Below, in pieces: positions 42,155 to 64,000 of a stretch of 64,000 nucleotides of DNA (its first letter is position 1; the number at the start of each line of letters is the position of its first letter). This DNA comes from an uncultured Alphaproteobacteria bacterium (lineage in GTDB: Bacteria > Pseudomonadota > Alphaproteobacteria > RF32 > CAG-239): the NCBI GenBank assembly GCA_910584385.1, contig CAJUAK010000002.1, positions 34,418 through 98,417 on the forward strand. Direction: 5' to 3'. The notes beneath the pieces are model-generated. The model saw only the letters and a list, made by a program, of their open reading frames with translations, ran no database searches and was not told the DNA's origin. Both the position numbers and the translations under genes were made by a program.

Positions 42155-42217
42155 GATATGATTATAAGCAAAGAAATATTAAATTTTGCTTTATTTGACA
42201 GGGTTAGAAAAATGAAA

Positions 42218-42637: not shown

Positions 42638-42692
42638 CCGGGCTAATCAGCTAAAGCGTAATTTTTAGCCGGGCTAATCAGCTAAAGCGTAA
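42631..42692. repeat. Perfect 31-bp tandem duplication, two copies.
   Basis: tttttagccgggctaatcagctaaagcgtaa occurs twice. Each copy contains the stop codon of one of the convergent genes. Confidence 0.85.
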
Positions 42693-43156
42693 ATGTCTTT
42701 AACAACCCAGTTATTGTTTTGGAAGTCCATAACGTAAATAATGTTTCCGTTGCAGAGGCCAAACCAGTTTCCGTCACATTGGCTGTTGGTGTACACTTCA
42801 ACAGCCGTTCCTTCCAGGGATTTTAATTTTTGAACCTGGTAGGTTATTTCTGTCGGGCGTCCGAGGCTGTCGTCTACCATAAAAATAAAGTCGGGCATTT
42901 GGCCTTTATGGGAAGCGCATTCGCTAAAATCAGGATTGATTGTGCATTTTAAGGCCATGTTGATTGTGCAAAGGATATTGCTTTCTTCGGTGCACCCTTC
43001 GGCAAGCGTCTCTTTGCTGAAGCTGAATTTTTTATCTTCTATGCCGAGTTCTTGCGGTGCAGACGGCTGGGACTGTTCCCGGCTTTTGTTTGTTTCAGTT
43101 TCAAAACAGGCGGCGAGCAGCAGGCATAAGCTGGCAATGCTAAGAAATTTTTTCAT
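42674..43156 (-). CDS. Lipoprotein of unknown function.
   Basis: MKKFLSIASLCLLLAAC lipobox. Start chosen at the RBS-preceded ATG at 43156. Confidence 0.5.
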   Translation of the reverse strand: MKKFLSIASLCLLLAACFETETNKSREQSQPSAPQELGIEDKKFSFSKETLAEGCTEESNILCTINMALKCTINPDFSECASHKGQMPDFIFMVDDSLGRPTEITYQVQKLKSLEGTAVEVYTNSQCDGNWFGLCNGNIIYVMDFQNNNWVVKDIYALAD

Positions 43157-43274
43157 ATCGTTTATCCTTTTATTTGATGATATTGTTATATAATCATATC
43201 CTGTTTTTTTAGCAAGTGCAAAAAAAGGAGATGTTTGAAAAAACATCTCCTTTGAATCTTTTCTAACCAAATGA

Positions 43275-43799
43275 TTAGAAGGTGTATCTGGCACCCAAAG
43301 AATATTCCATCATGTGGTCGATTTCAACGTTGCGCAGGTCAACATAGCGAGCCATTGCGCGAATGCTTACGTTTTCATCAACATTGTACATGGCGCCCAA
43401 ACCATAGCGGAAGCCATAACCATAGTTGCGATCTACAGCGCCGTCTTCTTTAGAAGTAAACTTGTAGCCGCCCCAGCCTAATTCACCAATCAGGGAAACA
43501 GTCTGTTCACAACCTAAAGGCAGGTAGCCCATCAAATCCAAACCATAAGCCTGCATATGAACTTTATCACCGGCTTTCTTGTCGTCTGTAGACAACTGAT
43601 AGAAAGCTTCTGTGCCGAAGTACTGGTTGTACATTGTACCAACATTGATAGAACCAGAATTCAGATTTACAGAAGTACTTGCAACTTCTGTATAGTTGTA
43701 GTCAGCACCAACATAAGGTGTGAATTCATAAGCACTGGCATTTGCAGCAAAAGCAACTGCAGATACGGCTACCATTAATGCACCAATAGTTTTTTTCAT
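43275..43799 (-). CDS. Small outer-membrane beta-barrel protein (Omp25/OmpW/Opa-like).
   Basis: Signal peptide, alternating aromatic beta-strands, and a C-terminal ...ARYTF with a terminal Phe. Confidence 0.65.
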   Translation of the reverse strand: MKKTIGALMVAVSAVAFAANASAYEFTPYVGADYNYTEVASTSVNLNSGSINVGTMYNQYFGTEAFYQLSTDDKKAGDKVHMQAYGLDLMGYLPLGCEQTVSLIGELGWGGYKFTSKEDGAVDRNYGYGFRYGLGAMYNVDENVSIRAMARYVDLRNVEIDHMMEYSLGARYTF

Positions 43800-47974: not shown

Positions 47975-47987
47975 TTTTTTTTTTTTT
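47975..47987. repeat. Homopolymeric T13 tract (A13 on the minus strand), about 70 bp upstream of the VirB2-like gene.
   Basis: Counted directly from the sequence. Confidence 0.9.
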
Positions 47988-48037
47988 GCAAGGTAAAATT
48001 ACTATTGTGGATTTTATTTCATAAATCTGTAACAGAG

Positions 48038-48073
48038 CTAAAAAAAGAACCCTGCTGAGTGTTTCAGCAGGGC
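48038..48073 (-). terminator. Minus-strand terminator (ccctgctga...tcagcaggg with an A-run on the plus strand).
   Basis: Hairpin plus A7, downstream of the 48097..48279 minus-strand gene. Confidence 0.5.
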
Positions 48074-48096
48074 TTTGGAGATGTATATGAAGCTTA

Positions 48097-48279
48097 CTAG
48101 AAAATTACTTTCTGCATATTGCTCCGCATGAGAGCGTCTTTTCTGCGTAAATTTTCTTTTTTTATTTGTTCAATGCGGATTAAATTTTTCCATACATGGC
48201 TTTCATTTTCTTTGATTGCCAAATCCAGACAGCTGTCTTGCAGCTTGAGGCTTTCCAGGCTGTTATCAAGATATTTCAT
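48097..48279 (-). CDS. DUF465 (YdcH-like) small coiled-coil protein.
   Basis: 60 aa with the LK..KL.LKD-like C-terminal pattern (IKKENLRRKDALMRS). Confidence 0.45.
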   Translation of the reverse strand: MKYLDNSLESLKLQDSCLDLAIKENESHVWKNLIRIEQIKKENLRRKDALMRSNMQKVIF

Positions 48280-48427
48280 GATTGTTCTCCCAAGATGGAA
48301 TTATTGCTAATTTGTAGCAATATCAATTATAGCATTTTTTTATTTAAAATCCAGCAAAAAGAATCTGTTAAATAGTTTTAGTTCTGAAAATGATGCTTAT
48401 ATTAAAAATAAAAATGAGGAGAAGAGT

Positions 48428-48817
48428 ATGCCGAATATGGATTGGTATCATGGTTTGTTAAAGCCGGATTTAACGCCGCCGGATTTTTTGTTTGGCGTTG
48501 TCTGGCCTGTTTTATATTTTTTGATGGGGTTGAGTTTGGTATTGCTTTGGAAAAACTCCGGCAAAAAGCTGTCTTGGCCTTTATTTTGGTTTGCGCTCCA
48601 GCTGGTTTTGAATTTGGCGTGGAGCCCGGTGTTTTTCGGTATGCGGAATATTGGCGGCGGCTTAGCGGTTATTTTGCTTTTATTTTTTGCACTTTCAATA
48701 ACAGTCGCGCTTTTCTACCGGCGCTATAAAATATCCGGATGGTTATTAATTCCTTATTGGTTTTGGGTCTTGTTTGCCGTCTATCTTAACTTTGGCATTT
48801 GGCTGCTTAATTCATAA
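48428..48817 (+). CDS. tspO: TspO/MBR family tryptophan-rich membrane protein. It is short and appears to lack the first transmembrane helix.
   Basis: LKPDLTPPDFLFGVVWPVLYFLMG and a C-terminal AVYLNFGIWLLN. RBS gaggag before the ATG. Confidence 0.6.
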   Translation: MPNMDWYHGLLKPDLTPPDFLFGVVWPVLYFLMGLSLVLLWKNSGKKLSWPLFWFALQLVLNLAWSPVFFGMRNIGGGLAVILLLFFALSITVALFYRRYKISGWLLIPYWFWVLFAVYLNFGIWLLNS

Positions 48818-48914
48818 TTATGAGATTCTCTGTGGCATAATTTAAATTTTTTGTTGTTTTTTATATTTTAAAGGCTAAAAACAGAATAGTGCGTAATTTA
48901 GTTGGAGATATAAA

Positions 48915-49286
48915 ATGGAAAAATTTAAAGCTAGCTTAAAAACTTATTTTTTAGATGTTTTGGTTAACCAGTATGTTGATTTTAAAGGCCGGGCATCCCG
49001 TACACAATTTTGGATGTTTTTCCTTTATGTTTTTGTAATTATGTTTGTCATCGGTTTTATTGCCGGATTGCTGAATATGCCCCGTTTGGCTCAGTTGGCA
49101 ATTTTGCCGTTCTTGCTGCCAAATATTGCTATTGCTGTCCGCCGCATCAGAGATTTGGGAATTTCCGGATGGTTTATCCTGGTATCTTTTGTTCCTTTTG
49201 TCGGTAGCATTTTGGTTTTGATCGGCTATTGCCTGCCGACAGATTTCCTCAAACCTTATGTTGAGAAATTGATGAAGAAAAACTAA
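48915..49286 (+). CDS. DUF805 (YhaH-like) inner membrane protein.
   Basis: GRASRTQFWMF and a conserved RRIRDLGISGW region. Confidence 0.75.
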   Translation: MEKFKASLKTYFLDVLVNQYVDFKGRASRTQFWMFFLYVFVIMFVIGFIAGLLNMPRLAQLAILPFLLPNIAIAVRRIRDLGISGWFILVSFVPFVGSILVLIGYCLPTDFLKPYVEKLMKKN

Positions 49287-49304
49287 TATTCTTTTTTGAA
49301 TATG

Positions 49305-49341
49305 GGGCGGTTGTCCGAGAGCACGGACAGCCGCTTTTTTT
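49305..49341 (+). terminator. Rho-independent terminator (gcggttgtccg...cggacagccgc followed by T7).
   Basis: Hairpin with a T-run after the DUF805 gene. Confidence 0.55.
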
Positions 49342-49459
49342 ATATATAGTCTAGCTTCGTAATTTTCGCTTTGTTAAGCTCAACAACTTCGCTTCGGTCA
49401 AAGACCTTGTAAGCTCGCTGCGGTTGCTGCCGCTTTCCTTGCTTGCAACAAGGTCTATT

Positions 49460-49505
49460 CACCATAATAAAAAAAGACCCGTTGGGGTCTGTTTTTATTA
49501 TGGTG
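49460..49505. repeat. 46-bp perfect palindrome (caccataataaaaaaagaccc gttg gggtctttttttattatggtg type). It works as a bidirectional terminator and may mark an island boundary.
   Basis: The arms were read directly. Base composition drops sharply to the right of this point. Confidence 0.55.
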
Positions 49506-49692
49506 CTCCGAAGTTGACGAATTGTTGAACTCCGTCAGGGATGAAACCATTGATATAAACGGATGGAAATAATGAAAATTTAACGGAGGGCAGACAATGA
49601 CATAACACAATGAAGATGCCTGATATAGAGGCTTTAAACGATTATAACACAAAAATAATTAAAGAAATAACGAAATTTTACGGAGAAAAATA

Positions 49693-49902
49693 ATGAAAAA
49701 CCAAAATACTAAAGTCTTAAATGAAAGAGGAGAAAAAAAGATGTCTAATAAAACTCGGGATTGGTTAACTTGTTGGATTGAAACTGAAACAAATAAGGTT
49801 GATGGTTCAGCCAAAGAGAAAAAGAAAGAAAATATCTCTAAAACAGAAAATTTTATAAGAGATTGGATTGCAAGCGAGACAACTCCATCAGTTTCCAATT
49901 AA
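49693..49902 (+). CDS. Small hypothetical protein with an internal duplication.
   Basis: TRDWLTCWIETETN and IRDWIASETT repeat within 69 aa. Lies in an AT-rich region. Confidence 0.3.
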   Translation: MKNQNTKVLNERGEKKMSNKTRDWLTCWIETETNKVDGSAKEKKKENISKTENFIRDWIASETTPSVSN

Positions 49903-49993
49903 ATTATTTTGAATAATATACTTTAATAAGTGCGATTTTTGCACAAATTAAGCAAGGAATCGCACTTGTTTTGTTATTTTAGTTTTTCTTAAC

Positions 49994-50113
49994 TTTACCG
50001 AGAGGGAAATTTTTTGTTGACATTTTATCATTTAATGGTGTATATTTACCGATAGGGAAATTTTTTATTCAAAAGGTTTTCTTTATAGTTAAAATTTACC
50101 GATGAGGAAATTT
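49994..50113 (+). promoter_or_regulatory. Three direct repeats TTTACCGA-N2-GGGAAATTT spaced about 50 bp apart. Putative operator/promoter of the hipBA-like module.
   Basis: Repeats at 49994, 50045 and 50095. The third overlaps the RBS and start of the HTH gene. Confidence 0.5.
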
Positions 50114-50320
50114 ATGAAAACAAAAGATTTGGCAGATATAATAAGAAAGAAACGCAAAGAGCAAAAACTTACCCAACCACAGTTGGCTGGGTTATGCAAT
50201 GTCGGTGTGCGGTTTATTGTTGATTTGGAATCGGGCAAAGAAACCTGTCAAATTGGCAAAGTGCTATATGTTCTGGATATGCTGGGAATTAAATTAAAAA
50301 TTGACGGAGAAAATCAATGA
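50114..50320 (+). CDS. hipB: Xre-family HTH protein (HipB-like antitoxin).
   Basis: HTH LTQPQLAGLCNVGVRFIVDLESG. Gene overlaps the hipA-like start. Confidence 0.55.
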   Translation: MKTKDLADIIRKKRKEQKLTQPQLAGLCNVGVRFIVDLESGKETCQIGKVLYVLDMLGIKLKIDGENQ

Positions 50321-51519
50321 ATTTGCTTGATGTCTATTTTCATAACAAAAAAATTGGAGTTTTAAAAGAGCATAATTCCAGATTGAGCTTCAAATATTCG
50401 GATGATGCTACAGAAGCGATTGCTCATCAGCTTCCGTTGCAAAAAGAAGCTTTTGGCGATAAAGAAACACGAAGTTTCTTTTCTAATTTATTGCCAGAAG
50501 GTGATGTGGTGAAGAAAATCGCTCAGATAAAACAAGTTTCGCTCAACAATCCATTTGCATTATTAAGAGAATTAGGCGGAGAATGTGCAGGGGCGGTTTC
50601 CCTTTATCCGCAAGATATGACACCGATTTTTGATGATACTTTGGAAGAAGTGTCTGCAGAAGAGTTGGCTACCCTTCTGAACAAGCTTTCTCAAACTCCG
50701 TTATTAACGGGCGCAGGTATTCGCTTATCGCTTGCTGGAGCACAAGAAAAACTAGCTTTAACAATTTTTCCTGATGATGAAAAGTATTATAAACCATCGG
50801 ATAAGTATATTTCTACTTGGATTTTAAAGCCTGAGAATCGGAATTTTCCAGATTTAATCTATAATGAATATTTTTGTATGAAGTTAGCAGGTCTTATGGG
50901 ATTAAATGTTGCTGAATGTAAGATTAGGATGTTTGGTTCAGTAACGGCTTATATGACAAAGCGATTTGACAGGCAGAATACTGTTCAGCGAATCCAGCAG
51001 GAAGATTTTTGCCAAGGTCTGGGGCTATCTAATAAAAAATATCAAAGAACTGAGGGAGGACCAAGCCTTAAGCAATGTTTTCAGTTCATCCATAGTAATC
51101 TGGCGAACAAGGCGAAAGATGAATTGCATTTTCTGAAAAGCATTGTTTTTAACTTTTTAATTGGTAATTCTGATGCTCACGGAAAGAATTTCTCTTATTT
51201 GCATACCGCGAACGGGTATGTTCTTTCTCCTTTGTATGATTTGGTATCTACCCAAGTTTATCCGCAACTAGCCAAAGAAATGTCAATGTCTATCGGTGGC
51301 GAGTATGAACCTGACAGAATTACCAGAACCAATTTTATGGTAATGGCAAAAGAACTTGGTGTGAAATCTCAACTTATTAATGACATTTTGGATAAATTGG
51401 CTGCAGAAATCATTGTGCAGGCAGAAAAACTCAAGGAAATGACGACAACTGAAAAAACTTATAATCCTGTTTATGATAAGGTTATAGAGGTTATTAAAGC
51501 AAGGGTTGCTCAGTTATAA
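50317..51519 (+). CDS. hipA: HipA-family serine/threonine kinase toxin.
   Basis: HipA N-terminal domain plus the catalytic loop GNSDAHGKNFS. Length 400 aa. Confidence 0.7.
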   Translation: MNLLDVYFHNKKIGVLKEHNSRLSFKYSDDATEAIAHQLPLQKEAFGDKETRSFFSNLLPEGDVVKKIAQIKQVSLNNPFALLRELGGECAGAVSLYPQDMTPIFDDTLEEVSAEELATLLNKLSQTPLLTGAGIRLSLAGAQEKLALTIFPDDEKYYKPSDKYISTWILKPENRNFPDLIYNEYFCMKLAGLMGLNVAECKIRMFGSVTAYMTKRFDRQNTVQRIQQEDFCQGLGLSNKKYQRTEGGPSLKQCFQFIHSNLANKAKDELHFLKSIVFNFLIGNSDAHGKNFSYLHTANGYVLSPLYDLVSTQVYPQLAKEMSMSIGGEYEPDRITRTNFMVMAKELGVKSQLINDILDKLAAEIIVQAEKLKEMTTTEKTYNPVYDKVIEVIKARVAQL

Positions 51520-51552
51520 TTCAGTTTTTTATGTAGGGTTGGTAAATTTCTA

Positions 51553-51588
51553 TTTTAGAAAATGCCCAATATTGGGCATTTTCTAAAA
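51553..51588. terminator. 36-bp perfect palindrome (ttttagaaaatgcccaatattgggcattttctaaaa). Likely a bidirectional terminator.
   Basis: Read directly, downstream of hipA. Confidence 0.5.
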
Positions 51589-51836
51589 TGAAATATTCAT
51601 TTTTAACTATTGAGGATTGCCGAATATGTCGTTTCTTTTGCGGAGAAAAACTAGTCTAATCTCCGCATATTTTGCGTAGATTAATGCTTGATATTGTAAT
51701 ACGAATGCTTGTTAATATAGCATAATTAAGAGATTAAATGCAATTCTGTGTAAAATTTTAGCAAAGAACCGCATTTAATTTTCATTTTAGTAGATTTAAG
51801 GGTGGTTTTCCTTGTTAAAATTTTAGTTTTTATGCC

Positions 51837-52589
51837 TCATCTCATAGGGTAAAAAGCTGTAAGTCTGCTGTATTTTTGTGTGATATCTTGTATGTCTGTT
51901 TTGTTTAATTGGTATAGATTTACATACATAAAAGTAATATACAAGCATTGTAGACTTATTGATATTGCAAGAAATTTATCACAATTTGGTATATTCATAC
52001 TTGTTCCATATCTGGGCATCATTACATACGGCGCATAATGCTTATATGCACAGAATCTGTCGTAGCTTTGTTTAATATTGGTTATTTCAGGATGATTACC
52101 ATTATTTGTAAGCCGTTGTACAATATCATTAATATCTTTTGCTTCTGGTCGGTACCATTTATTATAGTAATTTTTAGGGTTTAATAGAACTTCATCAGTT
52201 AATTCCTGTCCCTGTATATTTTTTTTCAATAATCTTTTTAAATTGTTTTTCTTTATAAAATTCAGATTATCATCTTTTTCTTCTGGATGGAGGTGTAGTC
52301 CTTCTAAAAATTCTATTGTTCCAAAATCTGCATATTGGCGAACTCTTTCTTTTGGTTTATCTAACATCCAAGAGAGTAAAATAAGCCCCTCCAACATATG
52401 AGAAGCTAAAATACAAGCATTATAATAATCATTATAAAGGTGCAATACAGATTTCGCGGATGATACCATTTTTTTGTAAAAAGAAACTGTTGCGTGCTGT
52501 ATAGGACTATTCAGCTCAAAATTAATATGTTGAGTACGTTCTATCAGCGAATACAAAATTTTTTTATATTTCTTTACGTTATCATCCAT
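51837..52589 (-). CDS. Hypothetical protein co-transcribed downstream of hsdR. Possible defence accessory gene.
   Basis: Lies 10 bp after the hsdR stop on the same strand. No known domain. Contains an Rx6H segment (RLTNNGNH). Confidence 0.35.
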   Translation of the reverse strand: MDDNVKKYKKILYSLIERTQHINFELNSPIQHATVSFYKKMVSSAKSVLHLYNDYYNACILASHMLEGLILLSWMLDKPKERVRQYADFGTIEFLEGLHLHPEEKDDNLNFIKKNNLKRLLKKNIQGQELTDEVLLNPKNYYNKWYRPEAKDINDIVQRLTNNGNHPEITNIKQSYDRFCAYKHYAPYVMMPRYGTSMNIPNCDKFLAISISLQCLYITFMYVNLYQLNKTDIQDITQKYSRLTAFYPMR

Positions 52590-52598
52590 ATCTATAGT

Positions 52599-55500
52599 TT
52601 ACACCCCGCCAGAGGAAATATCGCGGAAACGATTGAAGAATGCAATAATCTTTTGAATTACGGTTTCTCTCTTTTTTTGCCGTCTTTTTTGTGGGTCTAT
52701 GATTGGGAGTGGAGGTAAAACCTTATTAATTTGTATTCCGTTTTCCTGAACATAACCATTTTTGAAGGCATTATTGACATATTTGTAGGTTTCTTCCTTG
52801 TTTAAATTTTCTTCTTCAATAATTTTATTCAGCTCTGTTATTTTCTGTTCATTAACATATTTTTTCCAATCCTCATCAACATTACTGGTGGGTGTGAGCG
52901 AGTCAATAAAGTTTTCAATGAGGTCTTTTTTGCTGCGTAACTCAATACTGGCATCAACAGATTTCAAAATACTAACTTTAATTTCTTTATCTTCCATATG
53001 ACCTGCGTGATATTTTTTAATCAGCATTAGGATATAATCAATATTAATTTCAACCTGTTTAATCAGTTCAATCTCAAAAACAAGGTCATCATTAACATTG
53101 TCTTTTTCTTTGCCTTGGGGGCGCAGTTCATCATAAATCCTTAAATATTGGCTATGATAATCTTGTACATTCCGTTCGGTTAAAATTTCTTTTCCTGCAA
53201 ATTCATCAAATGAAGATAAAATATTTTTCAATCGCAGGATTGCACCATAGAGTTTAACAAAATCCCGCTTTTCTTTTTCACTGAAAATTAGCTCTCCAGC
53301 GGGATATGTTTCTACCAACTCCTCAATCAGTTCTTTGTAACCTTTAACAGTTTTGCCTTTATCATCGGTATAACCATTATAATATTCGGCAAAAGTTTTG
53401 AGCAATACGATACCACCCGCTTCTTTATCGCCAAACAAAGCAAGGCTCTTATTGGTTGCCTCTTCCAAATTGCGGAAACACACAATATTACCAAAGGCTT
53501 TAACAGCATTCAAAATACGGTTGGTGCGGGAAAATGCCTGCAACAGTCCTTGCATTCTTAAATTTTTATCCACCCACAGGGTATTTAAGGTCGTGGCATC
53601 AAAACCTGTTAAGAACATATTGACCACAATCAGCAGGTCAATTTCTCGGTTTTTCATTCGCATAGATACATCTTTGTAATAATTTTGGAATTTGTCGCTT
53701 GATGTATCGTAAGATGTCCCAAACATTTTATTATAGTCGTCAATGGCACTTTCCAGAAAATCTCTGTCGCTTTTATCCAATTTGCTGGTATCTTCTGGAT
53801 TTTCATCAAATACGCCGTCATCAGAATTATCATCACCATTCATTCCAAAACTAAAAATGGTTGCAACTTTGAGCTTCTGTAAAGGTTTTTCAGCCATTTG
53901 CTTTCTAAATTCTTCATAATAGAGTTTGGCAAACGGAATGGAAGAAACGGCAAAAATGGAATTAAAACCTGTCAGCCGAACTTTTTGTTTTATTTCATCA
54001 ATATCTTTGCGGTTTTTCGCTTGGGCAATATCTGCAATGTTGGTCAAAATATTATAGCTGTAAGACCTGTCGTTTCGCATTGTTTTCTGGTTAAAATGTT
54101 CCAAGATATAAGAAACGATACGAGATATTCTTTCAGGAGCAGCTAGGGCTTTTTCGCGGTTAATATCCCAAACTTTGGAATCTTTAATATTTTCCTGTTC
54201 TTTCATCGTACTGATGTAATCAATACGAAACGGCAAAACATTTTTATCGGCAATTGCATCAACAATTGTATAAGTATGTAATTGCTCACCAAATAACTGG
54301 GCTGTTGTTTTAAGGTCGGATTTGCAACCTGTATGAGCATTTTCGGCAAATATCGGCGTGCCTGTAAAGCCGAACAGATGATATTTTTTAAAGGCTTTGG
54401 TGATAGTCTGGTGCATCTCACCGAATTGGCTTCGGTGGCATTCGTCAAAAATTATCACAAGATGCTGGTTATAGACGGGATGTTCTTTATTTTGTTTGAT
54501 GAAGCAGGTTAATTTCTGAATTGTGGTAATAATGATGCGGGCATTAGGATTTTCAAGCTGTTTTTTCAAAACTGCCGTGCTGGTGTTGCTGTTGGCAGCT
54601 CCTTTTTGAAACTTGTCATATTCTTTCATTGTTTGGTAATCAAGGTCTTTCCTGTCTACCACAAACAAAACCTTGTCTATAATCGCCATATTCTGGGCAA
54701 GCTGTGCCGTTTTGAACGAGGACAGCGTTTTTCCCGAGCCTGTGGTGTGCCAAATATAGCCACCGCCATCTACTGTGCCATATTGTTTATAATTGCTTGC
54801 AATATTGATTTTATTGATAATGCTTTCGGTTGCCACAATCTGATAAGGACGCATTACCATCAGCATTTCATCAGATGTAAAAACGCAATATCTGGTCAAA
54901 ATATTTAGAAGTGTGTGTTTGGCAAAAAAGGTTTTGGCAAAATCAATTAAATCAATAATCGGTTTGTTTTTTCTATCAGCCCACCAAGAGGTAAATTCAA
55001 AACTGTTGCTGGTCTTTTTGCCCTTTTTTGAAGATGTTCCAGCATTTTCGCTGATATGCGATTGACGGGTGGTGTTACTGTAATACTTGGTATATGTGCC
55101 GTTTGAGATAACAAATATCTGCACAAATTCATATAAACCGCTTCCTGCCCAGAAACTATCGTTTTGATAACGGTTGATTTGGTTAAACGCATCTTTAATA
55201 TCAACACCGCGGCGTTTTAATTCTATATGTACCAAAGGCAAGCCATTAACCAAAACGGTGGCATCATAACGATTAGCTCTTGCTCCATCGTCCGTTTCAT
55301 ACTGATTGATAACCTGCAAAGTGTTGTTGTGGATGTTATCCTTATCTATCAGCAGGATATTGCGAAAAAGATAATTATCAACGGGCTTTTCATAATAAAG
55401 AACTTTTTTATAATCTTCTTGGATTATCTTGGTCTTTTCTTTAATACCGAAATTAGGATTGGCAATTTCCTGTTTGAAAAAAGTATCCCACTCTTTGTCT

Positions 55501-55727
55501 GTGAAGTGGTAATCGTTTAATTTTTCCAGTTGGCAGCGTAAGTTATCAATCAGGTCTTTTTCTGAATGAATTGGCAAATAATCGTATGCTTGATTTTGCA
55601 ATTGTTTAATGAACGCTTTTTCAAGGTCCGCCTCGGATTGATATTCGGTTTGCTTGGTTTCTACCGCCTGATATTCGGCAACAACTGTGCTTTCAGGATT
55701 TTCGGCAACGACACTAATTTTGTTCAT
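52599..55727 (-). CDS. hsdR: Type I restriction enzyme R subunit.
   Basis: 1042 aa with the PD-(D/E)xK region, helicase motifs (TGSGKT, DECHRSQ) and a Type I HsdR C-terminal helical domain. Confidence 0.9.
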   Translation of the reverse strand: MNKISVVAENPESTVVAEYQAVETKQTEYQSEADLEKAFIKQLQNQAYDYLPIHSEKDLIDNLRCQLEKLNDYHFTDKEWDTFFKQEIANPNFGIKEKTKIIQEDYKKVLYYEKPVDNYLFRNILLIDKDNIHNNTLQVINQYETDDGARANRYDATVLVNGLPLVHIELKRRGVDIKDAFNQINRYQNDSFWAGSGLYEFVQIFVISNGTYTKYYSNTTRQSHISENAGTSSKKGKKTSNSFEFTSWWADRKNKPIIDLIDFAKTFFAKHTLLNILTRYCVFTSDEMLMVMRPYQIVATESIINKINIASNYKQYGTVDGGGYIWHTTGSGKTLSSFKTAQLAQNMAIIDKVLFVVDRKDLDYQTMKEYDKFQKGAANSNTSTAVLKKQLENPNARIIITTIQKLTCFIKQNKEHPVYNQHLVIIFDECHRSQFGEMHQTITKAFKKYHLFGFTGTPIFAENAHTGCKSDLKTTAQLFGEQLHTYTIVDAIADKNVLPFRIDYISTMKEQENIKDSKVWDINREKALAAPERISRIVSYILEHFNQKTMRNDRSYSYNILTNIADIAQAKNRKDIDEIKQKVRLTGFNSIFAVSSIPFAKLYYEEFRKQMAEKPLQKLKVATIFSFGMNGDDNSDDGVFDENPEDTSKLDKSDRDFLESAIDDYNKMFGTSYDTSSDKFQNYYKDVSMRMKNREIDLLIVVNMFLTGFDATTLNTLWVDKNLRMQGLLQAFSRTNRILNAVKAFGNIVCFRNLEEATNKSLALFGDKEAGGIVLLKTFAEYYNGYTDDKGKTVKGYKELIEELVETYPAGELIFSEKEKRDFVKLYGAILRLKNILSSFDEFAGKEILTERNVQDYHSQYLRIYDELRPQGKEKDNVNDDLVFEIELIKQVEINIDYILMLIKKYHAGHMEDKEIKVSILKSVDASIELRSKKDLIENFIDSLTPTSNVDEDWKKYVNEQKITELNKIIEEENLNKEETYKYVNNAFKNGYVQENGIQINKVLPPLPIIDPQKRRQKKRETVIQKIIAFFNRFRDISSGGV

Positions 55728-56886
55728 TATTATTCTCCTTTTCTGCTTGTAATTCTAAGTAGCAAGCAGTGATAGTCAATAATTTTATTTCATCATATGA
55801 CATTGTTTCTACATCAATATCTACCCATTTTTTAGCGAATTGTTTAGAAAAACTTTGAGCACGCTGTAATCCCCAAATTTTATCTGTATTTATATTTTCA
55901 TTTAAATATGAAAATATTTTTTCTCTATCATAACCAAACGTTTGATAAGTGTTTTTGGGGTAAGCGTATATTATCTCATCTACTATATTTGCTAATTTAT
56001 CATAATCTAAATTGTCAACACTATCACAAATTTGAGGTATCGATGAAATTATAATATTTCTTATTCGTTGTACAGAATTCTTATTCTTACTATTTTCTGA
56101 TTCATATTTTAAAAACTTTATAAAGCACTCTATCTCATAAGTATCACAAAATCTTTCATTAAGAGTATCATAAACTTCTTGCAATATCTGTATGTCTGAT
56201 TGGTTTCTGTTTATTTTCTTTCTTTTCCATTCTTCTTTTTTGTTTTCTATTCTTCTTTCTAACTCATTTTTGACTAATATAAGCTGTTCATATCTGTTTT
56301 TTATAAAAGATTTCAATGAATCATAAGGGACGTACAGTGTTTTTGTTGCAGACTGTTGGTTAGAATAAACAAGGATGCCAATGCAATCTTTTTTTAAATT
56401 ATTAAAATCAGATAAAAGAAATGGCGAATAATGTATTTCGTTTTTTTCTTTTAGAAAGGGAGCTCGGCTAGTATTAAGAGGATGGGCAAATATGAGAGCT
56501 CTTAAATATTCAAAAAATTTAATATCAGTTGGACAGTTATCACCTATTAAATATAATGGCGCGTCTGCACAAACATTCATAAAATGCTTTTTTATTTCTT
56601 TTTGTTCGTCTTTAATTTTAAGTTGTTCCATTGTTTCTTGTACTGCATCTTTTATAATACAAGAATGGAGCATAAAAAGCATAATATCGTTCATATTTTG
56701 AGAAGATGTATTGTATTGGTTTAAAAATTCAACACTATCGTCTACTCTATCCATTACCGCACAGATAAGATTGTAATTGCGCTTCTCTTGTTCATCGCGA
56801 TGGAATATTCTTGATGAATTAACAACTTTCCTTAATTCTTTACAAATATTTCCATCTAAAAAATCCATATTAGGCAGCCTCTTCAA
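55714..56886 (-). CDS. Uncharacterised protein embedded between hsdS and hsdR. Possible HEPN-type abortive-infection protein.
   Basis: Overlaps both neighbouring genes. No NTPase motif. Rx5H motif at EYLRALIFAHP. Confidence 0.35.
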   Translation of the reverse strand: MKRLPNMDFLDGNICKELRKVVNSSRIFHRDEQEKRNYNLICAVMDRVDDSVEFLNQYNTSSQNMNDIMLFMLHSCIIKDAVQETMEQLKIKDEQKEIKKHFMNVCADAPLYLIGDNCPTDIKFFEYLRALIFAHPLNTSRAPFLKEKNEIHYSPFLLSDFNNLKKDCIGILVYSNQQSATKTLYVPYDSLKSFIKNRYEQLILVKNELERRIENKKEEWKRKKINRNQSDIQILQEVYDTLNERFCDTYEIECFIKFLKYESENSKNKNSVQRIRNIIISSIPQICDSVDNLDYDKLANIVDEIIYAYPKNTYQTFGYDREKIFSYLNENINTDKIWGLQRAQSFSKQFAKKWVDIDVETMSYDEIKLLTITACYLELQAEKENNNEQN

Positions 56887-57496
56887 AAGTCAGTAGTTTA
56901 TTTCTGTAATATTCATATTGTTGCCTGCGAGCAGTGAGTTCGGCAGGCAAGCCTTCTGAAATATCATTAACAAGGCTATCAAACTTATCTAAAATTGCAA
57001 CAATTCTTTCCTGTTCTTCTATTGGAGGAAAACCGAATTTAAATTTACTCATTGCAATATCATTTATTCTCATTACCTTTACACCAGTTATACATTTTTT
57101 CTTTTGTTCAAAGAATGCATTTGTTTGAAATAGGTATGACATATATTTAGGATTTTGATTATGATGATAGATAAAAGCATCACCACTAATGCAAATATCC
57201 TCATTGCCTAACCAAGCAACCGCTTTGCCAACATCCTCAACATTTTCACTAGTGGTTGCAATAATTAAATCTCCTGTTCGTGCTTTTTTTAACTTTTCAG
57301 CTAAGTTGTTGGAAACGTAAGATTTTGTTCGTTCTGCAAAAGTACCATAATAGGTATAGATTTGTCCATAATGAATACACCCAACACCTGTATCCGTAAA
57401 ATCCTTCTTTTGCAAACCATTACCTCTGATAAATGTTCCAACCTCTTCAAGTTGCATAAATTTAATTCTGCCCCCCCCCCGTTGTATTTTTATCAA
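56870..57496 (-). CDS. hsdS: Type I restriction specificity subunit, C-terminal half (TRD2 plus distal conserved region). It is out of frame with the N-terminal half at the G10 tract.
   Basis: Ends ARRQQYEYYRNKLLTFEEAA, a duplicate of the central conserved motif. The frame is offset by +1 relative to the upstream half. Confidence 0.8.
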   Translation of the reverse strand: MIKIQRGGGRIKFMQLEEVGTFIRGNGLQKKDFTDTGVGCIHYGQIYTYYGTFAERTKSYVSNNLAEKLKKARTGDLIIATTSENVEDVGKAVAWLGNEDICISGDAFIYHHNQNPKYMSYLFQTNAFFEQKKKCITGVKVMRINDIAMSKFKFGFPPIEEQERIVAILDKFDSLVNDISEGLPAELTARRQQYEYYRNKLLTFEEAA

Positions 57497-58130
57497 AAGT
57501 TAGGAGTTTGTTACGGTAGTATTCATATTGCTTCTTTCTCGCCTCCAGCTCCGCCTCCAGCTCCGCCTCCAGCTCCGCCTCCAGCGAGCTAAAAGCATCC
57601 AGAATCCGCACAACCTCTTCCTGCACAGGAAGAGGAGGGACAGGAATTTTTAGTGATAAAACTGCTTTCATAGAAGGATGTTGGATACCAGCGCCCCGAT
57701 AAAAAGAACTAATAAGTTCAATATTATTTGACATCCAATAATATAAAAACTTATTGCTCAAAACATTTGTATCATTTGATGTAGCAATCCTGTTATCACC
57801 AGTAATAAACTTTCCTTTGTAATATTTGACATTTGGTGTTCCCCCCCAAGGAATTGCTACAATTTCACCATTGCATAAATTATTCCCCGCCAATTCTTCT
57901 GTTGTGTATTTTATTTCACCAATTCCAGTTGATAAAATCCTGACATCTCCATTTTTTACAACAAGAGCGTTTACATCATTTGCCAACAGGTATGGATATT
58001 TAATAACTTTTTTTTGTTTTTCTTTTTCCACACCATTAAACTTCTTATCCCAAGATGTCAGTTCCCATAATTCCTTAAATTGAACCCCATTCGGGCAATA
58101 TTGCTTTATCAAATCATCAATCTTACTCAT
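57462..58130 (-). CDS. hsdS: Type I restriction specificity subunit, N-terminal half (TRD1 plus central conserved region with LEAE repeats). It terminates 2 codons after the G10 tract.
   Basis: Contains VPPLPVQEEVVRILDAF...LEAELEAELEAELEARKKQYEYYRNKLLTF and ends ...TTGGGQN*. Confidence 0.8.
   Translation of the reverse strand: MSKIDDLIKQYCPNGVQFKELWELTSWDKKFNGVEKEKQKKVIKYPYLLANDVNALVVKNGDVRILSTGIGEIKYTTEELAGNNLCNGEIVAIPWGGTPNVKYYKGKFITGDNRIATSNDTNVLSNKFLYYWMSNNIELISSFYRGAGIQHPSMKAVLSLKIPVPPLPVQEEVVRILDAFSSLEAELEAELEAELEARKKQYEYYRNKLLTFDKNTTGGGQN
57471..57480 (-). repeat. Homopolymeric C10 tract (G10 on the coding strand) at the hsdS half-gene junction.
   Basis: Counted directly. Removing one G would fuse the two halves in frame. 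Confidence 0.9.
57541..57588 (-). repeat. 12-bp tandem repeat (gcctccagctcc, about 3.8 copies) encoding (LEAE)n in the hsdS central spacer region.
   Basis: Three perfect copies plus one partial copy read directly. Confidence 0.9.
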
Positions 58131-58141
58131 CTTGTACTTCC

Positions 58142-58915
58142 TTATAACTTCAAAACTTTTCTAAGTTCTTTTAATCTGTCTGCGGTTTGAATATTCTCAA
58201 CTATTGAACTTATTAATTCTTTTAATGGTAAATATTCATTTAATGCTGTTTTATCATCAAATTCTCCGTGGACGATATTACTTAATTCTTGGAACAATTC
58301 GTACTTTCTATCATCTAATCCGTGAGGAATAATGTGTGCTTTTTTATTAGCTTCTTTTAGTTTTTCTTTAAAATTTAAAGTACTATCTATGTTATGCTTT
58401 TTTACAATTTCACTTACAATTGTTTCATATATCTTTCGCAAATATATAATTGCTCCCGCACCTAATCCCTCTCTATAGGCCTTATCTGCGGCGTCAAACA
58501 GTTCAATATATTTTGAAGTTGGTTTATAACTAACACTTTCAGATAGTTTATCTGAATATTTAATAATTCTAACTTTGGGAATTTGGGAGTGAATTTCATT
58601 TTCGCTTTCAATTAAAAACCAAGCAGGAATAGATGTTTCGCAAAATAAACAAGTTAAGACACAATCTATACTTATCATTTTTTCGTTTATTCCAATGCAA
58701 TGAACGGAACAAGGTTTAACAGGGTTATATAAGCAAAACGATTGCATCTTATTGCACTTTTTGCAAAAGAAATCTATTTGTATGTTACCAACCTCAATTT
58801 TTTTTAATTTTCCTCTATTGAGAAATTTTCCATCTAAAAAACCGTCTACAGGCTGAAAATCTGCTGATGGTTTAGTTGATAATATGTCGCTTAATCTCAT
58901 ATTATCACTCTCCAA
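58142..58915 (-). CDS. Zinc-ribbon plus DUF4145/HEPN-like domain protein embedded in the Type I operon.
   Basis: N-terminal Cys cluster (CKKCNK...CSVHC...CLFC). C-terminal AGAIIYLRKIYE...LSNIVHGEFD resembles DUF4145 (HEPN). Confidence 0.4.
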   Translation of the reverse strand: MESDNMRLSDILSTKPSADFQPVDGFLDGKFLNRGKLKKIEVGNIQIDFFCKKCNKMQSFCLYNPVKPCSVHCIGINEKMISIDCVLTCLFCETSIPAWFLIESENEIHSQIPKVRIIKYSDKLSESVSYKPTSKYIELFDAADKAYREGLGAGAIIYLRKIYETIVSEIVKKHNIDSTLNFKEKLKEANKKAHIIPHGLDDRKYELFQELSNIVHGEFDDKTALNEYLPLKELISSIVENIQTADRLKELRKVLKL

Positions 58916-58933
58916 ATGTGATGTTTTTGTATT

Positions 58934-60001
58934 TTATTCATCATTTTTGCCCTCAACAGAATCTTTTGATTTTTTGTTGTTTATCATATTTTCCAACTCT
59001 AAAAAGTAGTCAAAATCGCTATGATAAAGCCTATCTTGAATGATGCGATATTTTTCAAACTCTGTTTCAGCGTGTTGTTTAGCAAGTTCTGCTGATATTT
59101 TTCCAGCTCCCTGCAAAATATCCCTTCGTGTTAATCTTAATAAACCATCCAGTTGAGATGCCCAATCTTCCATTGTCATCGGCATATTTCTTTCTGCTTG
59201 GGATTCTGCCAAATCAAGATATGCGTTGACAATACGTCCCATTGCTCTCAGTTCTTCTTCGGTTAAATAATTCTTCGCAACACTGACATCATATTTATGA
59301 ATTTTACTTTGAGGTGCTCCTTCCCAAGTTGTCAGTCCCATATGCTCTTTGTTGGCATCAGCACGATTATAAATAACCTCTGCAGCGGTTTGTCCGTGAA
59401 TAGCCCAATGCAGTTTATTTTGCACCTTTGCAAAAAACTCTTGCGTCGTTTTAGATTTAGCATCGTAATCAACGCTCGTGGCATAAATATCCGTTATTTT
59501 TTGATAGAACATCCGTTCAGACATACGAATTTCTCTAATCCGCTGCAGTTGTTCTTCAAAATATTTTTTTGTCAGTATTGAGCCGCCTCGTTTAATGCGC
59601 TCATCATCCATTGCATAAGCTTTTATGGTGTATTGCTCAATAATATCATTAGCCCATTTACGAAATTGCACGGCTTTGGGAGAATCGACTTTATTACCAA
59701 CGGCAATAATTGCTTTTAAATTATAATGGTTGGTTTCGTATGTTTTTCCATCAGTGGCAGTTATTCGAAATTTTCGAATAACTGAATTTTCATCTAACTC
59801 CATATCACTAAAAATTTTTTTCAGATGATAATTAATAGTATTTGTTTCTACATTATACAAAATACCCATCATCTTTTGCGTAAGCCAAACGTTTTCATCA
59901 GCATAAATTGCCTCAATACCACTTTCTCCCGTAGCGGTAATAAATGTGAGATATTCAGCCGCGGAGCTTCTGATAGTAATTTCCTTTTTTTTAGCCATCA
60001 C
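58934..60001 (-). CDS. rhuM: RhuM-family protein.
   Basis: Conserved [11 protein letters not shown] and [13 protein letters not shown] blocks. Typical position between hsdM and hsdS. Confidence 0.7.
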
Positions 60002-61557
60002 GCCACTCCTTCCAAATCGGCAACGATGGCATCTATTTGCTGTCGTAACTCATTTTGTTTAGCCACAATTTGTTTGATTTGCTCATTTAAGACGGTAATA
60101 TCAATTTTTTCACGGATGTCTTTCTGCTCAACATAGGAAGAAACCGAGATATTGTAATCGTTCTCGCCAATTTTATCGTTTTTAACTAATTTACAGAAAT
60201 GTTCTTTATCTTCCCGTTTAATGTAGGCTTGCAAGATGTTTGCAATATTCTCATCAGTCAGTTTATTCTTATTGCCAGAATGGATAAATTCATTGCTTGC
60301 ATCAATAAACAAAACGGCATTGTCTTTTTTGCTCTTCTTCAAAACAATGATGCAGGTTGCAATACTCACGCCAAAGAATAAGTTGGCGGGAAGCTGAATC
60401 ACACAATCAACAAAGTTGTTGTCAATCAGATACTTACGAATTTTCTGCTCTGCCCCGCCGCGATATAAAACCCCAGGAAATTCTACGATTGCTGCCGTTC
60501 CGTCGGCCGCCAGCCAATTAAGCATATGCATCGTAAAAGCAAGGTCTGCTTTGCTTCGCGGTGCTAAAACACCAGCAGGAGAATAACGAGGGTCGTTGAT
60601 TAGGGTAACATCACTGTCCCCAGCCCAAGAGATAGAATAGGGCGGATTGGATACAATCGCCTCAAACGGCTCATCATTCCAATGTTTTGGGTCGGTTAAA
60701 GTATCTCCCAATGCAATATCAAATTTTTCATAATTGATATTGTGCAAAAACATATTAATACGGCAGAGATTGTAGGTTGTAATATTAATTTCCTGTCCGT
60801 AAAATCCATCTTTTACGTTTTCCTGCCCCAGAATTTTGGCAAATTTCAGCAGCAACGAACCCGAACCGCAGGCGGGGTCATAAACTTTATTGACTGATGT
60901 TTTGCCAACTAATGTAATTTTTGCCAAGAGTTCTGAAACTTCTTGCGGCGTAAAAAACTCACCACCTGATTTTCCTGCACTGCTGGCGTACATTGTCATT
61001 AAATATTCGTAAGCATCACCAAAAGCATCTATGGTATTGTCGGTAAAATTGCCAAGTTTTAACTCCTTGATAGAGGCTAAAATCTTAACCAGTTTCTCAT
61101 TTCTTTTTTGAACTGTTGCTCCCAGTTTATTGCTGTTAACATCAATATCTGCAAATAAGCCCTTGAAATCATCTTCACTGGCTGTTCCCTGTGCGGAGGC
61201 TTCAATATCACGGAATGCTTTGCTCAATGTTTCGTTTAAATTGGGATTGTTCTTGGCTTTTTTTTGCACATTTTGAAACAATTCACTAGGTAGAATAAAA
61301 AAACCTTTGGTAGAAACGGCGTACTCTCGGGCTGTTTCGGCGTTTTCATCAGTTTCTTTGGTATAATCATAGTCAGCAATACCGCTTTCCCTCTGTAATT
61401 TATTGATATATGCGGTGATATTTTCAGAGATAAAGCGATAGAACAGAATCCCCAGCACATAGGATTTGAAATCCCAACCATCAACGCTGCCTCGCAAATC
61501 ATTGGCAATTTGCCAGATAATTCTGTGTAATTCCGCTCTTTCTTGCTCTTTAGTCAT
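59998..61557 (-). CDS. hsdM: Type I restriction-modification DNA methyltransferase subunit (N6-adenine).
   Basis: HsdM N-terminal domain, AdoMet motif I ([12 protein letters not shown]) and motif IV (NPPYS). Confidence 0.9.
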
Positions 61558-61679
61558 TTCTTATCTTCCCAATAGTCAATAATTTTATGCAATTATAAAG
61601 AGGAAGGGTTAATTTTAAGTTTAGAGGCTCTTTCAAGCAAAGAAACCATAAAAATTTATCAGAAGTAAAACTAAAGTAT

Positions 61680-61785
61680 ACCCTATTTTTACATTTACAA
61701 AAGTGTAAAATCTAAATCATTTTGCTTGACAATTTTACAGATGTAAAATATATTCTTAAATATAGATTTTACATATTTAGGATTG
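61680..61785 (+). promoter_or_regulatory. Putative res-like site and promoter of the recombinase gene. It has three TGTAAAAT/ATTTTACA subsites. A sigma70-like TTGACA-17-TATATT promoter sits with subsite II in its spacer.
   Basis: Subsites at 61686-61710, 61732-61749 (near-perfect palindrome) and 61766-61776. The -35 is at 61726-61731 and the -10 at 61749-61754. Confidence 0.5.
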
Positions 61786-61786
61786 G

Positions 61787-62350
61787 ATGATGATTTTTAA
61801 TTATATACGAGTTTCTACGATTGAGCAAAATACTGAACGGCAGTTAAGGGATGTTGTTTGCGACAGGGTATATGAAGAAAAAATTAGTGGTAAGGATACC
61901 AACCGTCCCCAATTACAGGCAATGCTGTCCAATATCCGTTTTGGGGACATCATTAATATTCACGAAATGAGTCGTCTGGCTCGTAATACTCGTGATTTAT
62001 TAAATCTGGTAGAGGAAATTACCTCAAAAGGAGCAACAGTTGTTTTTCATAAGGAAAACTTAACTTTCAAAGGTAATGAAAAACAAGACCCATATCAAAA
62101 AATGATGATGACTATGCTTGGAGCTGTGGCAGAGTTGGAACGCAATTTAATATTGGAACGCCAACGAGAGGGAATTGCTCTTGCTAAACTGCACAACAAG
62201 TATAAAGGCGGTCAGCCTAAGCTAACTGCCGAACAGGTTACAGAATTAACCACACTTTACAAGCAAGGAATGCCTATCGCACGCATTGCCAAGCAATTTA
62301 AAATAACTCGTCCAACGGTTTATTCTTACTTAAAAAATGAAGAGAAATGA
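61787..62350 (+). CDS. Small serine recombinase (resolvase/invertase family) with a C-terminal HTH.
   Basis: Catalytic YIRVSTIEQ (Ser10), the conserved ERQREGI block and a C-terminal HTH IARIAKQFKITRPTVY. Confidence 0.8.
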   Translation: MMIFNYIRVSTIEQNTERQLRDVVCDRVYEEKISGKDTNRPQLQAMLSNIRFGDIINIHEMSRLARNTRDLLNLVEEITSKGATVVFHKENLTFKGNEKQDPYQKMMMTMLGAVAELERNLILERQREGIALAKLHNKYKGGQPKLTAEQVTELTTLYKQGMPIARIAKQFKITRPTVYSYLKNEEK

Positions 62351-62371
62351 AAGGCGATATTGAACATTCCA

Positions 62372-63052
62372 TCAATTTGGTGAAGGAGCATTTAGATTCG
62401 TATTCAAAATAACAGATTCAACAATTTTTCTGGCTAATTCTGTTACATTCCAACCTGCACTGTTAAAGTTATAGGTGGATTTTATGCCTTTGGGGGCATC
62501 TAAAAAAGTGATAAGAGCATACTCCTGCCCCTGATAGATAAAATGTCCCAAAAATGTTGTAACAATATCATCAGGATTATCTAACTTGTAGTCTGTTGCC
62601 GTTAGGCCATAGATAGAAATACCTTCAATGTTTATTTTCTTTGCTGCCCCGTTGGTAACATTGCCTCTTAACTCTTCCAGTTCTTTTTTACCTGCTGATT
62701 TGATGAAAGAGGTATAATCTTGGATAAACTGTGATGTGGTTGCCAATCTATCCTTTTTCAAAAGTTTCATAATGTTGTTGGGCGTATATGAAAAATCTTT
62801 ATTGTAGTCAAAACTTTCTAAAATACTGATGGAGGCGGAATTTAGAACTTCATCGTTTTCCAAATTCACCAGAATAAAAGCACCTCCTGCGGTATTAAAT
62901 TTTTCAACTTCCTCTGCCAATACACTATAATTTCTTTTGCAAATAGCTTCTTCTGTATTGCAGGTTTCGGAGAAAGATTTATTGTTGGAGATGTTTTTAT
63001 ACGAACATCCCATCAAAATTAAAGAAAACATTAAAAAAACTATTTTTTTCAT
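62372..63052 (-). CDS. Lipoprotein of unknown function.
   Basis: MKKIVFLMFSLILMGC lipobox. Confidence 0.45.
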   Translation of the reverse strand: MKKIVFLMFSLILMGCSYKNISNNKSFSETCNTEEAICKRNYSVLAEEVEKFNTAGGAFILVNLENDEVLNSASISILESFDYNKDFSYTPNNIMKLLKKDRLATTSQFIQDYTSFIKSAGKKELEELRGNVTNGAAKKINIEGISIYGLTATDYKLDNPDDIVTTFLGHFIYQGQEYALITFLDAPKGIKSTYNFNSAGWNVTELARKIVESVILNTNLNAPSPN

Positions 63053-63053
63053 A

Positions 63054-63977
63054 TTACTTCTCCTTTTTTGTTAAAACATTCTGCAATGTTTGATGAACAA
63101 CCTGACACCAATGAGTGTAAATGTAAGGAAGAGTATTACGAGTTTCCTCGCCTAACAACTCTTTTTTTACCTCATCATAAAATTCTTTACGAACGATAAG
63201 TTTGTTTCCAAAGCCCATTCCGATGCGTCGCCATTTTTCAAAAAATTCTTCATCAAGCCCTCCAGTCCACGGATAAATTTTTGTTATCGGAGAAAAAATA
63301 GTTTGGACTTCATCTACAATTTCATTATTCAAAAGTTCAATGAAATATTGTTTAATTTCATTATCTTCAACAACAAAAAAACGGGCTGTTTTTGCAAATC
63401 CCATTCCTCCTGGAACCGTAGCCGCAACAAACATTATATCATTTGGATTAATCTGTTTGAGAGTCTGCAAATTCAGTTTTTGAAACAAAAATCCGTGCTC
63501 ATCTATTTGTTCTGGATAACTTTCTTCAAAAGAAAATTCACGAGGGTCTTCCACCATTTTTCTTGCTGTAAAAGACAATTCTCGTTTGCACCCACATAAA
63601 TACAAATCAATATTGGGAAAATCATTTCTTAAATTTATATCTATATGACAACCCAACCATTCATCAGAATAAAAAAGAGATTGTCCGAAATTAATTTTCA
63701 TCGGATATGTTTTAAATAGATTTATCTCAACAGTTAAGTCAAATTCATGATTTAAGAAATCGCTATTATACACTTTCAAATATTTTGAAACAAAATATTC
63801 TTTTGAAACAAGCGGCTTCTCCCCGTTATCATCAACCACAGAAGTTTCTTCATCGTTTATCCTAATCGTTCCGCTATCTATATGAAATTGAATATAGTCG
63901 TCTATATAATAATAATCTTTACGAACAGATTCGGCTTTGTCAAAATTTATTCCAAATCTTATTCCAAGTAGGCTCAA
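63054..63977 (-). CDS. Hypothetical protein.
   Basis: 307-aa ORF immediately upstream of, and co-oriented with, the lipoprotein gene. No recognised domain. Confidence 0.35.
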   Translation of the reverse strand: MSLLGIRFGINFDKAESVRKDYYYIDDYIQFHIDSGTIRINDEETSVVDDNGEKPLVSKEYFVSKYLKVYNSDFLNHEFDLTVEINLFKTYPMKINFGQSLFYSDEWLGCHIDINLRNDFPNIDLYLCGCKRELSFTARKMVEDPREFSFEESYPEQIDEHGFLFQKLNLQTLKQINPNDIMFVAATVPGGMGFAKTARFFVVEDNEIKQYFIELLNNEIVDEVQTIFSPITKIYPWTGGLDEEFFEKWRRIGMGFGNKLIVRKEFYDEVKKELLGEETRNTLPYIYTHWCQVVHQTLQNVLTKKEK

Positions 63978-64000
63978 GCGAATACTATTAAGACTAAAAT

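Follow-up and report, generated by a model that had tools for sequence, protein, structure and literature searches.

A copy-number-variable 12-bp LEAE repeat in the specificity subunit of a Type I system from an uncultured gut alphaproteobacterium, a probable spacer-length ruler

A mechanism by which a short in-frame repeat changes the DNA target of a Type I specificity subunit (HsdS) is already known from Escherichia coli plasmids, Neisseria gonorrhoeae, and Xylella. EcoR124I recognizes GAAN6RTCG and EcoR124II recognizes GAAN7RTCG, and their HsdS subunits carry two versus three TAEL units, which give the N6 versus the N7 spacer (PMC3874165). One unit of four residues places the TRDs ∼0.34 nm further apart, rotates them by ∼36 degrees, and lengthens the spacer by 1 bp (PMC3874165). 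In Type IC systems, an HsdS truncated to its N-terminal half remains active as a homodimer (PMC3874165). The NgoAV system of N. gonorrhoeae combines 0 to 3 LEAT units with a poly-G tract; one LEAT unit yields GACN6TGC, two yield GACN7TGC, and the form truncated at the poly-G tract reads the palindromic GCAN8TGC (PMC6789123). LEAT has been described as a molecular ruler, and the truncated HsdS200/0LEAT, the sole LEAT-less form tested, gave no methylation (bioRxiv 10.64898/2026.01.10.698759). The hsdS gene of the Xylella XfaII system contains LEAE at 0.75 to 3.75 copies together with C7-9 tracts (bioRxiv 10.1101/2022.09.01.506293). In the survey of phase-variable hsdS genes by Atack et al. 2019, a homopolymer or a (GCAA)n tract directly after the coiled-coil region toggles HsdS between full-length and truncated forms; repeats with units divisible by three were excluded from that survey and named as future work (PMC7383803).

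Does a repeat of this kind operate in an uncultured bacterium, and does its copy number vary? We analyzed a stretch of 64,000 nucleotides from an uncultured gut alphaproteobacterium (referred to here as the window), for which an earlier note had proposed a 12-bp (LEAE)n repeat in the central conserved region of HsdS. Both Tandem Repeats Finder (TRF) and translation confirmed the repeat (Table 1): the array has a period of 12, 3.8 copies, 100% matches, no indels, and a score of 92. Its minus-strand sequence is (CTGGAGGCGGAG)x3 + CTGGAGGCG. Exact copies of GCCTCCAGCTCC begin at 57541, 57553, and 57565 and are followed by the partial copy GCCTCCAGC. The interval of 57541-57588 in the earlier note is right in position, and its end at 57588 overshoots the periodic stretch by a trivial 3 bases. 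The minus-strand codons of the region, agc tcg (ctg gag gcg gag)x3 ctg gag gcg aga aag aag caa tat gaa tac tac cgt, encode the peptide SS-LEAE-LEAE-LEAE-LEA-RKKQYEYYR, so the repeat directly precedes RKKQYEYYRNKLLTF and lies in the HsdS central conserved helix, directly N-terminal to the R-x-x-QY-x-YYR motif. The repeat is real and a chance origin is excluded, because the longest period-12 self-match in the window spans 34 bases (at 57540), against a mean of 8.3 and a maximum of 15 when the window was simulated 200 times with a first-order Markov model. An open reading frame (ORF; 57362..57592, PPAPPPAPPP...) also runs through the repeat on the plus strand; we took it to be a mere reflection of the coding repeat and set it aside.

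The two Methylase_S matches in hsdS mark two TRDs, and the central and C-terminal conserved regions of the protein are alike, the former terminating in ARKKQYEYYRNKLLTF and the latter in ARRQQYEYYRNKLLTF. The C-terminal conserved helix carries a single degenerate unit, LPAE-LTA, whose count is constant: one unit was present in each C-terminal conserved region recovered from the fetched loci. The nearby G tract mentioned in the earlier note is also real. It lies 57 bp downstream of the repeat and is the sole G/C homopolymer of at least 8 bases in the 64 kb. In the window, the tract is in the G10 state, which yields a 222-amino-acid (aa) half-subunit whose frame stops 3 codons past the tract; the second frame encodes 208 aa from a TTG at 57496 or 195 aa from an ATG at 57457, and on many contigs this TRD2-half product is called as a separate gene of 195 or 207 aa. 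When the tract length was varied in silico from G8 to G11, removal of one G (G9) fused the two frames into a 419-aa protein, G10 and G11 truncated hsdS, and G8 and G11 gave other truncations. A G7 run inside TRD1 (minus strand, 57841..57847) showed no variation among the identical-allele contigs examined.

Table 1. Features of the hsdS gene and its surroundings, in window coordinates.
Feature	Position	Strand	Evidence or context
12-bp tandem repeat, LEAE-LEAE-LEAE-LEA, proposed ruler	57540..57585	-	TRF and translation
hsdS, both frames	56870..58130	-	Methylase_S in each half
hsdS 5' frame, 222 aa, TRD1 and central conserved region	57462..58130	-	PF01420 Methylase_S E=2.4e-18; PADLOC Specificity_I E=2.9e-52
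hsdS 3' frame, TRD2 and C-terminal conserved region	56870..57496	-	PF01420 E=5.9e-12
G10 homopolymer, junction of central region and TRD2	57471..57480	-	In-silico G8-G11 variants and natural variants
Single degenerate unit LPAE-LTA, C-terminal conserved helix	56930..56950	-	Loci comparison and model
Exchangeable cassette, TRD1 and upstream 257-aa ORF	57653..58984	-	blastn of window versus L001-L004
hsdM, methyltransferase subunit, 519 aa	59998..61557	-	Pfam N6_Mtase E=1e-117, HsdM_N E=2.1e-20
RhuM-family gene	58934..60001	-	Pfam E=1e-106; PADLOC candidate defence family PDC-S05 E=4e-146
257-aa ORF	58142..58915	-	Upstream of hsdS
390-aa ORF	55714..56886	-	Between hsdS and hsdR, overlapping both
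hsdR, restriction/translocase subunit, 1042 aa	52599..55727	-	Pfam HSDR_N, SWI2_SNF2, T1R_D3-like, EcoR124_C (matches PF12008 EcoR124_C E=7.9e-67, PF04313, PF18766, PF22679)
250-aa ORF	51837..52589		Conserved, adjoins Type I operon
HipA-like toxin gene	50317..51519		Within low-G+C stretch
Serine recombinase, resolvase family	61787..62350	+	Within low-G+C stretch

The 419-aa protein encoded by the G9 version matched the solved EcoR124 HsdS (7bst_A; phmmer E=1e-33, residues 113-416), and the alignment opens a gap of four residues precisely within the TAEL region (LTAEL----TAELNMRKKQY in EcoR124 versus LEAELEAELEAELEARKKQY in our protein). The window therefore has one unit more than the two-TAEL EcoR124 protein. 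An AlphaFold2 model of the 419-aa protein, built from 51 aligned sequences (pLDDT of 90.8) and used for its secondary structure, places the repeat at residues 183-197, within one continuous helix (167-210). The partner helix of the coiled coil (370-412) holds the LPAE-LTA unit, and the TTGGG encoded by the G tract falls in a low-confidence linker from the central helix to TRD2. Among the Foldseek matches to the model, the best were without exception HsdS subunits, 7bst_A among them; a Type IIB S-like subunit appeared as well. Taken together, the Pfam and 7bst_A matches and the 167-210 helix bear out the placement of the repeat in the central conserved region of a Type I S subunit, and the alignment gap supports the homology to the TAEL region that had been proposed.

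The classical definition of the Type IC family is subunit complementation, or antibody or hybridization cross-reaction, with EcoR124I. Here, the system is assigned to Type IC (the EcoR124 family) from sequence features, because its HsdR has the family-specific C-terminal EcoR124_C domain alongside the HSDR_N nuclease domain and the SWI2/SNF2 motor domain. The operon is interrupted by a RhuM-family gene inserted between hsdM and hsdS and overlapping the end of hsdM. The 390-aa, 257-aa, and 250-aa ORFs, all three conserved, were without a match in Pfam, PADLOC, and NCBIfam. The 390-aa gene occupies the place of the anticodon nuclease gene prrC in the Type IC EcoPrrI locus; a PrrC-like role for it is unsupported, as it has no similarity to any known family in those three collections. 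The locus lies in a stretch of 33-38% G+C that starts near 48 kb (about 48000..64000), the rest of the window being ∼44% G+C, and this stretch was probably acquired horizontally as a defence island. The window contains no tRNA gene that would mark where such an island integrated. A T13 run (47975..47987) sits at the edge of the low-G+C region. Elsewhere in the window, a perfect 31-bp tandem duplication (TTTTTAGCCGGGCTAATCAGCTAAAGCGTAA x2, 42631..42692), with the top TRF score in the window (124), sits where two convergent ORFs meet (42158..42637 on the plus strand and 42674..43294 on the minus strand).

How does this locus compare with the described systems? It resembles NgoAV in its 12-bp/4-aa repeat in the central conserved helix, which is present in 0 to 3 copies among NgoAV strains, and in a downstream poly-G tract that toggles between a two-domain HsdS of ∼400 aa and a half-subunit of ∼200 aa independently of the repeat. 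Unlike NgoAV, its unit is LEAE rather than LEAT, its host is an uncultured gut alphaproteobacterium, its operon contains the inserted RhuM-family gene and the 257-aa and 390-aa ORFs, and its TRD sequences are unrelated as far as tested. With XfaII of Xylella fastidiosa, it shares the LEAE unit, variation in unit number within a single hsdS allele (0.75 to 3.75 copies in XfaII), and homopolymers in the gene. The two differ in host and TRDs, and in the window's species the homopolymer is a G9-G11 tract where the central region meets TRD2; XfaII was compared through its published description. EcoR124I and EcoR124II, as well as EcoDXXI and EcoPrrI, also carry TAEL; the likeness to EcoR124I and EcoR124II lies in the EcoR124_C domain of HsdR and in a repeat at the same position, and the window is, by our count, the 3-copy state of the EcoR124I/EcoR124II series. 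It differs from EcoR124 in the unit (LEAE versus TAEL), in being chromosomal rather than plasmid-borne, and in having an extra homopolymer switch. As for the genes surveyed by Atack et al. 2019, family members of the window's hsdS likewise have both homopolymers and (GCAA)n tracts at the junction after the central helix, whereas the 12-bp ruler repeat fell outside the scope of that survey.

To follow the repeat within the species, we fetched same-species contigs from public metagenome assemblies by using neighboring window proteins as exact look-up keys, and all comparisons for the window's allele are between contigs with the same TRD1 and TRD2; the variation recorded is variation between assemblies. 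The window itself has 3 units and G10. Two contigs (L086/L087) have 3 units and G9, with 0 mismatches to the window over 9-11 kb; a single G is the sole difference, and the predicted 419-aa protein is encoded exactly. Contigs with 2 units and G9 were represented by L088 (1 mismatch in 13,131 aligned bases plus 13 gap bases) and by L089-L091 (0 mismatches). Five others (L096-L100) have 2 units and G10, with 0 mismatches in up to 6,669 bases, the sole difference being a 12-base gap. A 2-unit, G11 state (P0173) is known from its protein sequence only. Overall, 2 units stand in place of 3 on contigs that otherwise differ from the window by 0-1 mismatches across 6.6-13 kb, so copy number changes faster than point substitutions build up over 6-13 kb. 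Furthermore, 2 and 3 units each occur with G9 and with G10 in one allele; unit number and G-tract length combine freely and vary independently, as expected from the earlier proposal of two independent variation mechanisms.

We also searched by exact sequence for hypothetical proteins that differ from the window's allele in unit number alone. The 2-unit versions exist, both full length (415 aa, 7 contigs) and truncated (218 aa). In the same exact look-up, there was no match for the 1-unit full-length version (411 aa) or for the 4-unit versions (423 aa and 226 aa). The 419-aa G9 protein and the 222-aa and 208-aa window products also had no match in the protein collection by exact look-up; we treated this as a gap in the look-up table and not as absence, because the 419-aa gene is called on contig L086.

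One potential explanation for these differences is that they are artefacts of short-read metagenome assembly. All comparison sequences are indeed assemblies, in which repeats and homopolymers are error-prone, and because homopolymers can be miscounted, the G-tract calls are weakened more than the 12-bp calls. The whole repeat tract of 46 bp is nevertheless below the length of a sequencing read, each state recurs on several contigs that are independent of one another in sample and assembler (ENA, Logan), the 2-unit forms occur on at least 7 plus at least 5 contigs, and a like polymorphism is documented in finished Neisseria and Xylella genomes. We regard an assembly artefact as extremely improbable. 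Could the system instead be dead in this genome, with hsdS a frameshifted pseudogene and the repeat without a present function? The G10 tract does break hsdS into frames of 222 and 208 aa. Against this, hsdM and hsdR are intact, and the contigs that are identical over 9-11 kb have G9 and an intact hsdS. As the G9 contig is otherwise identical, the frameshift is therefore recent and reversible. Split forms of hsdS also recur on many independent contigs, and the published activity of truncated Type IC N-terminal halves as homodimers (PMC3874165; NgoAV) argues that a half-subunit need not be inert. A dead system thus appears unlikely to us.

The same species contains a sister allele with a different TRD1, whose DNA is 99.3-99.5% identical to that of the window from the central region onward to hsdR. 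Most copies of this allele have 2 units (418 aa on 43 contigs and the truncated 221-aa form on 10 contigs). The 1-unit state occurs in 414-aa and 217-aa forms (2 contigs), and the 0-unit state encodes 410 aa (3 contigs; L092-L095). A 3-unit version (422 aa) had no match in the exact look-up, and by the same look-up no 4-unit variant was found for either allele. Copy number is therefore variable rather than fixed, with 2 versus 3 units on otherwise identical DNA in the window's allele and 0, 1, and 2 units in the sister allele; this was the point on which the earlier note had made its proposal depend. Within the cassette formed by TRD1 and the 257-aa ORF upstream of it, the window and the sister allele (L001-L004) share no DNA similarity; the flank on the hsdM side is 96% identical. 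Since the TRD1 cassette is dissimilar and the flanks are alike, specificity is thus also altered by cassette exchange. In one relative (L003, 11293..13173), the 3' part of hsdR is duplicated together with the 250-aa gene: the additional copy is inverted and lies directly downstream of the first, so that the two stand tail to tail, and they are 99.8% identical.

The sister-allele counts bear on a further alternative, namely, that the repeat is a structural piece of the coiled coil and that differences in copy number are neutral or mildly harmful slippage with no switch of specificity. Consistent with this alternative, the 0-unit (3-4 contigs) and 1-unit (2 contigs) states are rare compared with 2 units (53 contigs), a single count dominates within each allele, and the truncated LEAT-less HsdS of NgoAV gives no methylation. 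A scan of one genome per species with HsdM as the query gave 80 loci, spread over many phyla and with HsdM identities of 72-96%; the closest locus (96% identity) belongs to an uncultured Alphaproteobacteria bacterium MAG. In the 60 species-level loci with a readable central region, 2 units were counted 35 times, 3 units 21 times, and 1 unit 5 times. Two units were also found in most of the best 120 protein homologues. Several pairs of these homologues are apparently one unit apart (P0020 [411 aa] and P0032 [407 aa], P0045 and P0060, P0040 and P0056, and P0023 and P0065), as judged by central-region strings and lengths and not by alignment.

LEAE is spelled in 27 different ways at the DNA level between loci. 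Pairs of LEAE units were identical in DNA in 85% of within-locus comparisons versus 14% of between-locus comparisons, and 0 of 2000 permutations reached this level. The identity of units within loci indicates concerted evolution, in which units would be repeatedly lost and reduplicated, with turnover ongoing. Such continual turnover, with units identical within loci and synonymous spellings that differ between them, does not fit rare accidents. In addition, 2 and 3 units are both common across the 60 species, and in every experimentally tested system the 2- and 3-unit states are active with spacers 1 bp apart. Neutral slippage may explain the rare 0-unit and 1-unit forms. It is unlikely as an account of 2 versus 3 units because of these experimental precedents and the family-wide 35:21 split, and we consider it very unlikely that the repeat as a whole is a purely structural element with no part in a specificity switch.

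The sequences just after the central helix were also recorded in the family loci. (GCAA)n-type tracts that encode ASKQ repeats (ASKQASKQ) were seen in L039, L042, L060, L078, L079, and L080, DRQT repeats in L082, and G8-G9 tracts in L022, L033, L036, L045, L058, and L061. The junction after the central helix appears to be a recurrent site of frame-shifting simple repeats.

On the basis of homology to the systems in which the effect on the spacer has been measured, the LEAE array of this Type IC HsdS is, with high probability, its length-setting tetra-amino-acid repeat. With each 12-bp unit, the first helix of the antiparallel pair that separates the TRDs would grow by four residues, or roughly one turn. 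Units would be gained or lost by replication slippage or by unequal recombination between the perfect copies, a mechanism taken from the published homologues. As in those homologues, one unit is expected to shift the half-sites of the methylated or restricted motif by one bp, and zero units probably inactivate the enzyme. A G9 tract gives the full two-domain subunit, which would recognize an asymmetric bipartite target. With G10, by analogy, the 222-aa half-subunit may dimerize through its repeat-bearing helix and read a palindrome of the TRD1 half-site. In its present state (3 units, G10), the window should thus specify an enzyme built on a homodimer of half-subunits, whose target would be a TRD1 palindrome. 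Its G9 relatives should recognize an asymmetric target, and going from 2 to 3 units should lengthen their spacer by 1 bp. These predicted targets follow from the EcoR124I/EcoR124II and NgoAV precedents, and in the G10 window the repeat acts only if the half-subunit is active, as it is in NgoAV and in the truncations of EcoR124I and EcoDXXI.

A bolder reading of the G10 state is that both halves are made, a TRD1 half of 222 aa whose helix bears the repeat and a TRD2 half of 195-208 aa whose helix lacks it, and that the LEAE count, beyond setting the spacing, chooses among TRD1/TRD1, TRD1/TRD2, and TRD2/TRD2 dimers, which would give a mixture of up to three methylation specificities per allele. 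We think this distinctly unlikely. If true, it would mean, together with the family-wide homogenization of units, that the repeat is a general and fast code for partner choice and spacing in Type IC systems of many phyla.

The arrangement of a repeat plus a homopolymer is published for NgoAV. What the present data add to it is an isogenic natural series (2 or 3 units; G9, G10, or G11) in an uncultured gut bacterium, where epigenetic heterogeneity of such a kind had not previously been examined, and family-wide evidence for unit homogenization from 60 species in many phyla. Because units divisible by three were left out of the main survey of phase-variable hsdS genes, 12-bp ruler variation has been undercounted. 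The identity of units within genes suggests that units are being actively gained and lost across the whole of this HsdS family.
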